Assembly: GCF_003790525.1 (NCBI RefSeq)
Contig: NZ_CP033635.1
Source of the DNA: Escherichia coli
GTDB lineage: Bacteria; Pseudomonadota; Gammaproteobacteria; Enterobacterales; Enterobacteriaceae
Length of the DNA: 64,000 nt
Reading direction: 5' to 3' (one strand)
Positions within the stretch are counted from its first letter, which is position 1. Each line of letters opens with the position of its first letter. The position numbers and the translations under genes were made by a program. This document shows, in pieces, positions 60,762 to 62,490 of the stretch. The notes below the pieces were generated by a model, which was given only the letters and a program-made list of their open reading frames with translations, searched no databases and was not told where the DNA came from.

Positions 60762-61757
60762 TCACTGCCATTTACGGTGATACGCGCCAAGGGTGGTCTG
60801 CGTGCCTTCGGACATCGACCCGAGCGTCTCCATCCACGCGCTTTGCGGTATGAAGTTTTGCGGATCGGCCTTACAACGGTCGATAGCCTGACGCCAGACT
60901 TTCGCCACCTGGCTGACATACGCCGGGCTACGCTGGCGGCCTTCAATTTTCACCGAAGCAATATTCGCTGCCATTAACTCCGGCAGCAGTTCCAGGGTAT
61001 TGAGACTGGTGGGTTCTTCCAGCGCGTGATAGCGCTCGCCGTCCACCAGATAACGCCCTTTACACAGCGTCGGATAACCTGCGTTTTCGCCGTCCTGATA
61101 ACGGTCGATCAGCACTTCGTTCAGGCGGGATTCCAGCCCCTGCGGCGTTTGTTGCCAGCGCACGAAACGGGCCGGAGAACACGCACCCACAGTGTTGGGC
61201 GACTCACCCGTCAGATACGACGACAGATAGCAACGACCTTCCGACATAATGCACAGGCTGCCGAAAGCAAAGACTTCCAGTGGTACAGGTGTGACCCGTG
61301 CCAGTTGTTTCACCTGATGAATCGACAACACGCGCGGCAGCACCACGCGGGCAACGTCAAAATGGCGATGATAAAAGTTAATCGCCTCTTCATTGGTCGC
61401 CGAAGCCTGCACTGACACATGACGCTCAATATGCGGGTAACGCTCGGCGGCGTACTCCAGCATGGCGAGGTCGGCGAGGATCAGCGCGTCGGCACCCAGC
61501 TGCGCCGCCATATCCACGGCGCGCTGCCAGCGGGCGTAACCGTCCGGATGCGCAAAAGTGTTAATCGCGATGTGAAGTTTGCGGCGATGTTGATGGACAA
61601 AACTCACCGCTTCCTGCAATTTTTTCTCGGTAAAGTTAAGGCCGGCGAAGTGACGGGCATTGGTATCATCTTTTAGCCCGATATAAACAGCATCTGCGCC
61701 GTTTTCGATGGCCGCCTTAAGCGCCGGGAGATTTCCGGCAGGGCAGAGCAGCTCCAT
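60762..61757 (-). CDS. ubiU: U32-peptidase-family protein for O2-independent ubiquinone biosynthesis
   Basis: ORF contains MELLCPAGNLPALKAAIENGADAVYIGLKDDTNARHF..., 331 aa (formerly yhbU). Confidence 0.88.
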   Translation of the reverse strand: MELLCPAGNLPALKAAIENGADAVYIGLKDDTNARHFAGLNFTEKKLQEAVSFVHQHRRKLHIAINTFAHPDGYARWQRAVDMAAQLGADALILADLAMLEYAAERYPHIERHVSVQASATNEEAINFYHRHFDVARVVLPRVLSIHQVKQLARVTPVPLEVFAFGSLCIMSEGRCYLSSYLTGESPNTVGACSPARFVRWQQTPQGLESRLNEVLIDRYQDGENAGYPTLCKGRYLVDGERYHALEEPTSLNTLELLPELMAANIASVKIEGRQRSPAYVSQVAKVWRQAIDRCKADPQNFIPQSAWMETLGSMSEGTQTTLGAYHRKWQ

Positions 61758-61965
61758 AATTTTTCCTGAAGGTTGCGCTATCAAAGCGCAAAAATGTTAA
61801 CGAACTGGGATTTTAGTTAACCTTGCTGCGACAATTTTTGATTTAAGGCAGTTAAAGTTGTATTGGTGGTAGCAGCAATTTCATATGGAATTGTTGATTT
61901 ATACCGCTATGTTATTTTTCTGATATGGCAAAATAGGATGATTGTTGAAACAGGGAGTAAAACTC

Positions 61966-62490
61966 GTGTTGGATAAACTGCGTTCCCGTATTGTGCATTT
62001 GGGGCCATCTCTGTTGAGTGTACCGGTAAAACTGACGCCATTTGCGCTAAAACGCCAGGTTCTTGAGCAGGTCTTAAGCTGGCAATTCCGCCAGGCGTTG
62101 GATGATGGCGAGCTGGAGTTTCTTGAAGGCCGCTGGTTAAGTATTCATGTGCGTGATATTGACCTGCAATGGTTTACCTCGGTGGTGAATGGCAAACTGG
62201 TCGTTAGCCAGAACGCGCAAGCTGATGTGAGTTTTAGTGCCGACGCCAGCGATCTGCTGATGATTGCGGCGCGTAAACAAGATCCGGATACGCTCTTCTT
62301 CCAACGTCGGCTGGTGATTGAAGGCGATACGGAGCTGGGGTTATATGTGAAAAACCTGATGGACGCCATTGAACTGGAGCAAATGCCGAAAGCCTTACGC
62401 ATGATGCTGCTGCAACTGGCGGATTTTGTTGAGGCGGGAATGAAAACCGCGCCTGAAACCAAACAGACATCGGTAGGTGAACCATGCTAA
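61966..62490 (+). CDS. ubiT: SCP2-domain ubiquinone biosynthesis accessory protein (probable GTG start)
   Basis: ORF contains (V)LDKLRSRIVHLGPSLLSVPVKLTPFALKRQVLEQVLSWQF..., 174 aa (formerly yhbT). Confidence 0.85.
   Translation: MLDKLRSRIVHLGPSLLSVPVKLTPFALKRQVLEQVLSWQFRQALDDGELEFLEGRWLSIHVRDIDLQWFTSVVNGKLVVSQNAQADVSFSADASDLLMIAARKQDPDTLFFQRRLVIEGDTELGLYVKNLMDAIELEQMPKALRMMLLQLADFVEAGMKTAPETKQTSVGEPC

Follow-up and report, generated by a model that had tools for sequence, protein, structure and literature searches.

Control of ubiUV by FNR is established (Arias-Cartin et al. 2023, PMC10470549), and an FNR ChIP peak has been reported for yhbUV (Myers et al. 2013, PMC3688515), the resolution of which cannot separate the FNR site F1 from the palindrome analysed here. 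Two FNR sites, F1 and F2, were mapped in the ubiT-ubiUV intergenic region: the distance from F1 to the downstream ubiUVp start, a start known from dRNA-seq, is 36 nt, mutation of F1 alone completely prevented anaerobic UbiV production, and F2 serves ubiTp2 (PMC10470549). UbiUV act in ubiquinone synthesis without oxygen, and transcriptional control by FNR is the only control described for them so far. The paper on ubiUVT regulation (PMC10470549) mentions neither the UTR nor the palindrome, and searches of the literature on yhbU/ubiU in connection with sRNA, Hfq or 3' ends gave nothing relevant and no description of a leader hairpin. The FNR control of ubiUV and the sites F1 and F2 are published already; the leader hairpin reported here adds a new example to a familiar class of elements.

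Standby-region stem-loops, a concept reportedly owed to de Smit and van Duin and to Espah Borujeni and Salis, share several properties with the ubiUV hairpin. Like them, it is short, GC-rich and ligand-free, lies within the 30S contact region (-16 to -34 from the AUG), is flanked by single-stranded A/U-rich sequence and is conserved as a shape only; it differs from them in that its predicted effect on Shine-Dalgarno accessibility is very small. With the 5'-terminal stabilising stem-loops of the ompA type it has in common that it is a leader hairpin with an unimportant loop sequence, but it is internal, with 11 unpaired nt ahead of the stem, and RNase E bypasses simple internal stem-loops. Intrinsic terminators and attenuators are likewise GC-rich leader hairpins, and a run of U5 follows the ubiUV hairpin in Klebsiella and Raoultella only; in E. 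coli and most genera it has no U-tract, and it has no competing antiterminator fold. The palindrome shares one pentamer and an FNR-dependent control region with the FNR box TTGAT-N4-ATCAA (F1 and F2), but it holds a half-site only, is placed 3' of the transcription start and lacks conservation.

The window (the whole stretch of 64,000 nucleotides of Escherichia coli DNA that was analysed) carries ubiU, formerly yhbU, on the minus strand with its ATG at 61757-61755, as RefSeq also annotates it in an identical E. coli genome, and ubiT starts divergently at 61966. The plus strand at 61773-61791 reads TTGCGCT-ATCAA-AGCGCAA, and the perfect 7-bp arms and 5-nt core that the sequence-only reading had reported are present exactly. 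Its placement 16 bp before the ubiU start and just 5' of the ribosome-binding site was also correct: 16 positions (15 intervening nt) separate the end of the palindrome from the start codon, and 5 nt separate it from the AGGA Shine-Dalgarno sequence. Read in the direction of ubiU, the region is GTTAAC-A-TTTTT-GCGCT-TTGAT-AGCGCAA-CCTTC-AGGA-AAAATT-ATG, in which the TT before GCGCT is part of the 5' arm TTGCGCT. Because ubiU lies on the minus strand, the transcript carries UUGCGCU-UUGAU-AGCGCAA, followed by CCUUC, the Shine-Dalgarno AGGA and AUG. The start site, about 61802, was derived from the published F1 distance (36 nt) and the position of the -10 hexamer; with this start, the palindrome occupies +12 to +30 of a 45-nt ubiUV leader, and the AUG is at +46. 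A 401-nt region around the palindrome was found at no less than 99% identity in 5,422 of 5,426 complete E. coli genomes. The coordinates are summarized in Table 1. A TTG start at 61784, proposed by the ORF finder, in the loop and in frame with ubiU, was ruled out because the RefSeq start is at 61757 and the spacer lengths vary by non-multiples of three.

Table 1. Features of the ubiU upstream region (positions in the window).
Feature	Position	Strand	Details and basis
RNA stem-loop, ubiUV leader	61773..61791	-	5' arm 61791-61785 UUGCGCU, loop 61784-61780 UUGAU, 3' arm 61779-61773 AGCGCAA; sequence, fold, covariation
Polymorphic base, 5' arm	61786	-	C in the window (C-G pair); T/U in MG1655 (U·G wobble)
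A/U-rich single-stranded leader 5' end CGUUAACAUUU	61792..61802	-	holds the nearly invariant TTAAC box (GTTAAC 61801-61796)
Shine-Dalgarno AGGA of ubiU	61764..61767	-	sequence; CAGGA nearly invariant in 59 species; predicted unpaired
ubiU ATG	61755..61757	-	RefSeq annotation of identical genome; tblastn matches begin at residue 1 in 80 species
-10 hexamer TAAAAT of ubiUVp	61810..61815	-	sequence; invariant except A5 in alignment A1
FNR site F1 TTGATTTAAGGCAG	61838..61851	+	published; activates ubiUV; best consensus match in the intergenic region; conserved in 79/80 species
FNR site F2 TTGATTTATACCGC	61894..61907	+	published; serves ubiTp2

When the intergenic region is scanned for TTGAT-N4-ATCAA, F1 and F2 rank first with 3 mismatches each, and the centre of F1 lies near -42 from the published start. 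The commonest form of F1 is CTGCCTCAAATCAA (50 species), and the E. coli form is CTGCCTTAAATCAA (26 species). The spacing between F1 and the -10 hexamer is fixed at 22 bp in 79 of the 80 species, which indicates that the promoter architecture is shared. The sequence-only reading had named ubiTUV as controlled by FNR, which for ubiUV the published regulation study and the ChIP peak bear out (PMC10470549, PMC3688515), and had stated that no full FNR box is present at the palindrome, which the consensus scan of the intergenic region upheld, since the best match overlapping the palindrome has mismatches at 5 of 10 positions. An FNR meaning of the ATCAA/TTGAT core, which it had likened to an FNR half-site, was not supported: the pentamer is the loop of a hairpin downstream of the start, is TTGAC in E. 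albertii and is unrelated in other genera. That the palindrome contains an auxiliary FNR half-site is scarcely credible. ATCAA/TTGAT does equal one FNR half-site, but the second half mismatches at 5 of 5 positions, the palindrome is downstream of the transcription start, the pentamer is not kept even in E. albertii, and mutating F1 alone already abolishes anaerobic UbiV (PMC10470549). A class II FNR activator site (~-41.5) is excluded, since the palindrome is part of the transcript and stands 3' of the promoter. A promoter-like match, TTGATA at 61784, was at chance level (1 found, 1.0 expected).

The palindromic hexamer GTTAAC occurs twice, 20 bp apart, at 61816-61821, where it abuts the -10 hexamer, and at 61796-61801, which corresponds to +2 to +7 of the transcript. 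Conservation is high for both copies (GGTTAA[CT] in 78 of 80 species, with TAAC invariant), and the TAAC of the TTAAC box is invariant in alignment A1. This conservation goes beyond the need of a spacer or an initial transcribed region, and the pair could be the site of another regulator or a promoter-proximal signal.

The perfect palindrome is the minority allele within E. coli: a 61-mer of the window was matched exactly in 653 of 5,424 complete genomes. At minus-strand position 61786, T replaces C in 4,689 of the 5,424 (86%), including K-12 MG1655 and O157:H7, giving TTGCGTT...AGCGCAA. The C-to-T change breaks the DNA palindrome and keeps the RNA pair as U·G, and the stem changes from -9.7 to -7.3 kcal/mol with the majority allele. 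The perfect form is probably ancestral because E. albertii and the other Escherichia species carry C at 61786.

We compared the ubiU locus of 80 Enterobacteriaceae species, among which UbiU is 94-100% identical. F1, the 22-bp spacing, the -10 hexamer, the TTAAC box at the transcript start and the CAGGA Shine-Dalgarno sequence are nearly invariant. The stretch from the TTAAC box to the Shine-Dalgarno is the most variable sequence of the leader, yet a hairpin is almost always present there, at the same place in 68 of the 72 distinct leaders. The absence of the palindrome from other enterobacterial ubiU upstream regions, together with a lack of effect on expression when mutated, had been named as a refuting observation by the sequence-only reading; in these 68 leaders the shape was found, with a sequence that differs between genera. 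In the 59 leaders with a single hairpin, the hairpin follows the TTAAC box by a median of 6 nt and precedes the Shine-Dalgarno by a median of 7 nt. The stems are 4-10 bp long, the loops are 3-8 nt long, and the arm sequences differ between genera (Table 2). The TTGAT loop is confined to Escherichia, with TTGAC in E. albertii. The hairpin is kept as a shape, without its sequence, across Enterobacteriaceae.

Table 2. Hairpins of the ubiUV leader in individual genera.
Genus	5' arm	Loop	3' arm
Escherichia	UUGCGCU	UUGAU	AGCGCAA
Citrobacter	UGCGCC	CUUUAC	GGCGCA
Citrobacter, second form	UUGCGCC	CAGAC	GGCGUAA
Salmonella	UUGCGUC	UCA	GACGUAA
Klebsiella	GCGUCCC	UGAC	GGGCCGC
Yokenella	GCGACC	GCAU	GGUCGC
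Pluralibacter	GCGGCCC	UGC	GGGUCGC
Silvania	UUUACCGCCC	UCUG	GGGCGGUAAA

Clean loss of the hairpin was seen in Pseudocitrobacter, Enterobacter chuandaensis and one Lelliottia nimipressuralis genome (loci L034:1450-1503, L058:61-114 and L036/L045/L054:1456-1503); the Pseudocitrobacter leader is short and hairpin-free. From a comparison of L034 and L058 with L059, the loss in Enterobacter and Lelliottia looks like a 9-nt deletion between GCGATC repeats. These losses indicate that the hairpin is dispensable. In Phytobacter, Kosakonia, Mangrovibacter and their relatives the leader is longer, extending ~57-59 nt beyond the TTAAC box, and contains two GC-rich hairpins in tandem (L042, L046, L050, L060, L064, L069, L073, L076, L080 and L089). 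The hairpin of Klebsiella and Raoultella, GCGUCCC-UGAC-GGGCCGC, contains a U·C mismatch and precedes AUUUUU; it resembles an intrinsic terminator within the leader (L008:1466-1490 in Klebsiella pneumoniae; also L010, L011, L014, L017, L030, L033 and L035). Outside Enterobacteriaceae the leader is unalignable, and a GC-rich hairpin stands just 5' of the Shine-Dalgarno in several genera, for which homology is not claimable. Such hairpins were seen in Serratia, Edwardsiella, Hafnia, Budvicia and Yersinia (L082, L085, L087, L088 and L083). The Yersinia hairpin is CAUC-UUCG-GAUG, in Budvicia a U-rich run comes after a 15-bp stem, and Proteus is without a hairpin.

Covariation of the stem was examined in alignments of two kinds. 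In a MAFFT alignment of Escherichia and Citrobacter made without regard to structure, 89% of the cells of the seven proposed pairs were paired, and 2 pairs had changed on both sides. A covariance model was built from an Escherichia/Citrobacter seed and used to align all 81 sequences. In this alignment, which was fitted to the structure and leans towards it by construction, 84.7% of the cells were paired, 7 of 7 pairs showed compensatory changes, and 47 compensatory cells were counted against 15.7 +/- 3.1 in shuffles, with slid controls paired at no more than 62%. The corresponding values for the 59 single-hairpin species, with the same leaning of the model-fitted alignment, were 85.5% of cells paired, compensatory changes in 6 of 7 pairs, and 43 compensatory cells (shuffles: 13.6 +/- 3.1); over both model-fitted alignments the slid controls reached at most 64%. 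RNAalifold found a 5-bp helix with compensatory variants at 5 of 5 pairs in the 59-species single-hairpin alignment. It returned no structure on the plain MAFFT alignment (A1) or on the full model-fitted alignment including the two-hairpin species (A3), because the arms are out of register or the columns are too gappy.

The 25-mer RNA containing the palindrome folds at -9.7 kcal/mol (z = -4.96), and none of 200 shuffles was as stable. The hairpin is the sole element in the centroid structure of the leader, and a fold of this stability was reached by only 1.4% of the 25-nt windows across the 64 kb. The whole window holds 54 perfect 7-bp inverted repeats that enclose 3-8 nt, against 26 +/- 5 in dinucleotide shuffles, and those with a 5-nt loop number 14 against 4.5 +/- 1.9; the twofold excess is presumably due to terminators and REP-like elements. 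A perfect 7-bp repeat alone is therefore not rare, and the palindrome stands above chance because its pairing is conserved across genera. The folding z-scores of the individual species against dinucleotide shuffles were modest, with only ~16% below -2, which counts against a selected hairpin; they are weak because short GC-rich spacers fold anyway. An Rfam covariance-model search gave no family at or above its gathering score, and the two sub-threshold matches, elsewhere in the intergenic region, are chance matches. The Rfam family CRISPR-DR22 matched by chance at 61898-61934 on the minus strand, overlapping F2; its score was 21.9 bits (gathering score 50, E = 0.032).

Arms could be held in register in a palindromic DNA operator as well, and we therefore looked for strand asymmetry. 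The hairpin finder scores Watson-Crick pairs only and is consequently strand-blind. On the ubiU sense strand, the internal transition mismatches comprised 17 of the G·U type, spread over about eight lineages, and 1 of the A·C type, and the single A·C mismatch sits in a doubtful hairpin. A strand-neutral process should give G·U and A·C equally, so the 17 to 1 ratio argues against a strand-neutral DNA process. The folding energies of the sense and antisense strands were equal on average and gave no strand difference. The G·U bias, the U·G majority allele of E. coli and the variable stem and loop lengths together make an operator unlikely and an RNA stem-loop likely. Of the two functions that the sequence-only reading had offered, an operator or a 5' UTR hairpin affecting translation, the hairpin gained support as a structure from the leader fold (-9.7 kcal/mol, centroid), the covariation and the strand-specific wobble pairs. 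The operator lost it, given that the arms, stem length and loop length vary and that the DNA palindrome is imperfect in most E. coli genomes. A dimeric repressor bound to palindromic DNA just downstream of the start has very little probability: the perfect 7-5-7 inverted repeat at +12 to +30 does occupy a classical roadblock position, but the arms, stem length and spacer change between closely related genera, the DNA symmetry is broken in 86% of E. coli genomes by a change that is silent for RNA pairing, and the mismatch spectrum is strand-asymmetric. The palindrome is very probably the DNA image of a selected RNA stem-loop in the ubiUV 5' leader.

FNR at F1 activates a promoter with its -10 hexamer at 61815-61810 and its start near 61802. 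The resulting transcript consists of 11 unpaired A/U-rich nt, the 7-bp hairpin at +12 to +30, 5 unpaired nt, AGGA, and the AUG at +46. The hairpin would act in cis, at the RNA level and constitutively, without a ligand or a sequence-specific partner; the lack of conservation of the loop argues against sequence-specific recognition. Our preferred mechanism is that the hairpin defines the shape of the standby region, where the 30S subunit lands, just 5' of the Shine-Dalgarno. By locking up the GC-rich middle of the leader, it would set the basal translation-initiation rate of a transcript made only when FNR is active. A constitutive, cis-acting leader stem-loop that tunes translation initiation is the best overall explanation of the data, which we put forward tentatively and at somewhat less than an even chance; the specific way in which the hairpin would tune translation is a little less probable again. 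Since some lineages do without the hairpin, its effect is probably modest.

The predicted folds place the ribosome-binding site outside the stem. The Shine-Dalgarno and the AUG are unpaired in the MFE and centroid structures, with a mean unpaired probability of about 0.7-0.75 when the hairpin is formed, and a hairpin that sequesters the Shine-Dalgarno was ruled out on this ground. Disruption of the arms in silico (63 species) changed the Shine-Dalgarno accessibility from 0.68 to 0.64, and compensatory mutants did not restore it. This tiny shift, unrestored by compensation, does not support an insulator role in silico.

The same stem-loop might instead shield the ubiUV mRNA from RNase E, either because a cut in the AU-rich leader (ACAUU) leaves the stem near the new 5' end or because downstream sites are hindered. 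The anatomy is that of mRNA-stabilising leader stem-loops, an A/U-rich single-stranded segment precedes the hairpin, and the irrelevance of the loop sequence is expected of a purely structural element. However, 5'-terminal protective stem-loops of the ompA type need to lie within a few nt of the 5' end, and the ubiUV hairpin begins 11 nt from the mapped one. A block of RNase E scanning was set aside because RNase E is reported to bypass simple stem-loops (PMC9943677). We regard a stability element as unlikely. Somewhat less likely still is the absence of any function, in which a GC-rich quasi-palindrome is kept at the DNA level (e.g. by template-switch correction between the arms) and is neutral in a short spacer. 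This would agree with the loss of the hairpin without obvious consequence in several lineages and its duplication in others, with the weak folding z-scores and equal sense and antisense energies, and with the derived E. coli allele, which is found in 86% of the genomes in spite of its weaker stem (-7.3 instead of -9.7 kcal/mol). It would not account for the 17:1 sense-strand excess of G·U over A·C, which is unexpected from a strand-neutral DNA process, nor for a position relative to the TTAAC box and the Shine-Dalgarno that is kept in 68 of 72 leaders despite the most variable sequence of the leader.

A transcriptional pause or attenuator, in which the nascent hairpin slows or terminates RNA polymerase before ubiU, is improbable. 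The Klebsiella and Raoultella hairpin with its AUUUUU has the form of an intrinsic terminator, but E. coli and most genera have no U-tract, and the hairpin is followed by CCUUCAGG (as in E. coli) or ACGUCAGG. A simple terminator scan flagged the hairpin in neither E. coli nor Klebsiella, and no alternative antiterminator pairing was predicted in the leader fold. The cultures of Adams et al. 2021 were reportedly grown aerobically, a condition under which ubiUV is barely transcribed; the 3'-end supplements of that study contain no yhbU/ubiU entry. The chance is slimmer that the hairpin serves as a landing site for a factor acting in trans, either Hfq with an sRNA or some other RNA-binding protein, through which oxygen or iron would exert a second control on UbiUV. 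Conservation is higher in the flanks (UUAACAAUUUU upstream and CAGGAWAAAUUAUG downstream) than in the hairpin, and the leader motifs AAC-AAU and AGG-AAA-AAU resemble A-R-N repeats, which we counted in favour of this reading. The divergent operon encodes the Hfq-binding protein HqbA, but the HqbA paper names ubiU only within a cited title (PMC10710024). Duplex energies of ArcZ, FnrS and RyhB with the leader were no better than those of shuffled sRNAs by a crude method, and the loop is not conserved. The fuller version, in which the hairpin and its conserved flanks form a post-transcriptional module read by a trans factor (e.g. Hfq with an sRNA, modulated by HqbA) and the Klebsiella and Raoultella leaders contain a genuine terminator, is equally remote.

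A conserved leader structure, such as the translation-tuning stem-loop that we prefer, would be the first sign of a post-transcriptional layer on ubiUV. If the trans-factor module were true, anaerobic ubiquinone synthesis would gain a further checkpoint in addition to FNR. Only a small effect is expected, and leader stem-loops are well known; the result refines a known regulatory region and reveals nothing new in kind. In regards to reporter or expression constructs of ubiUV, the 45-nt leader is not neutral, and K-12 and the ~12% of strains with the perfect stem differ in stem strength. The Shine-Dalgarno-to-AUG stretch at 61755-61767 reads AGGAAAAAUUAU followed by G, with GG at -11/-10 and U and G at -1/+1, and may be the consensus elemental pause, a signal that is reportedly enriched at start codons.
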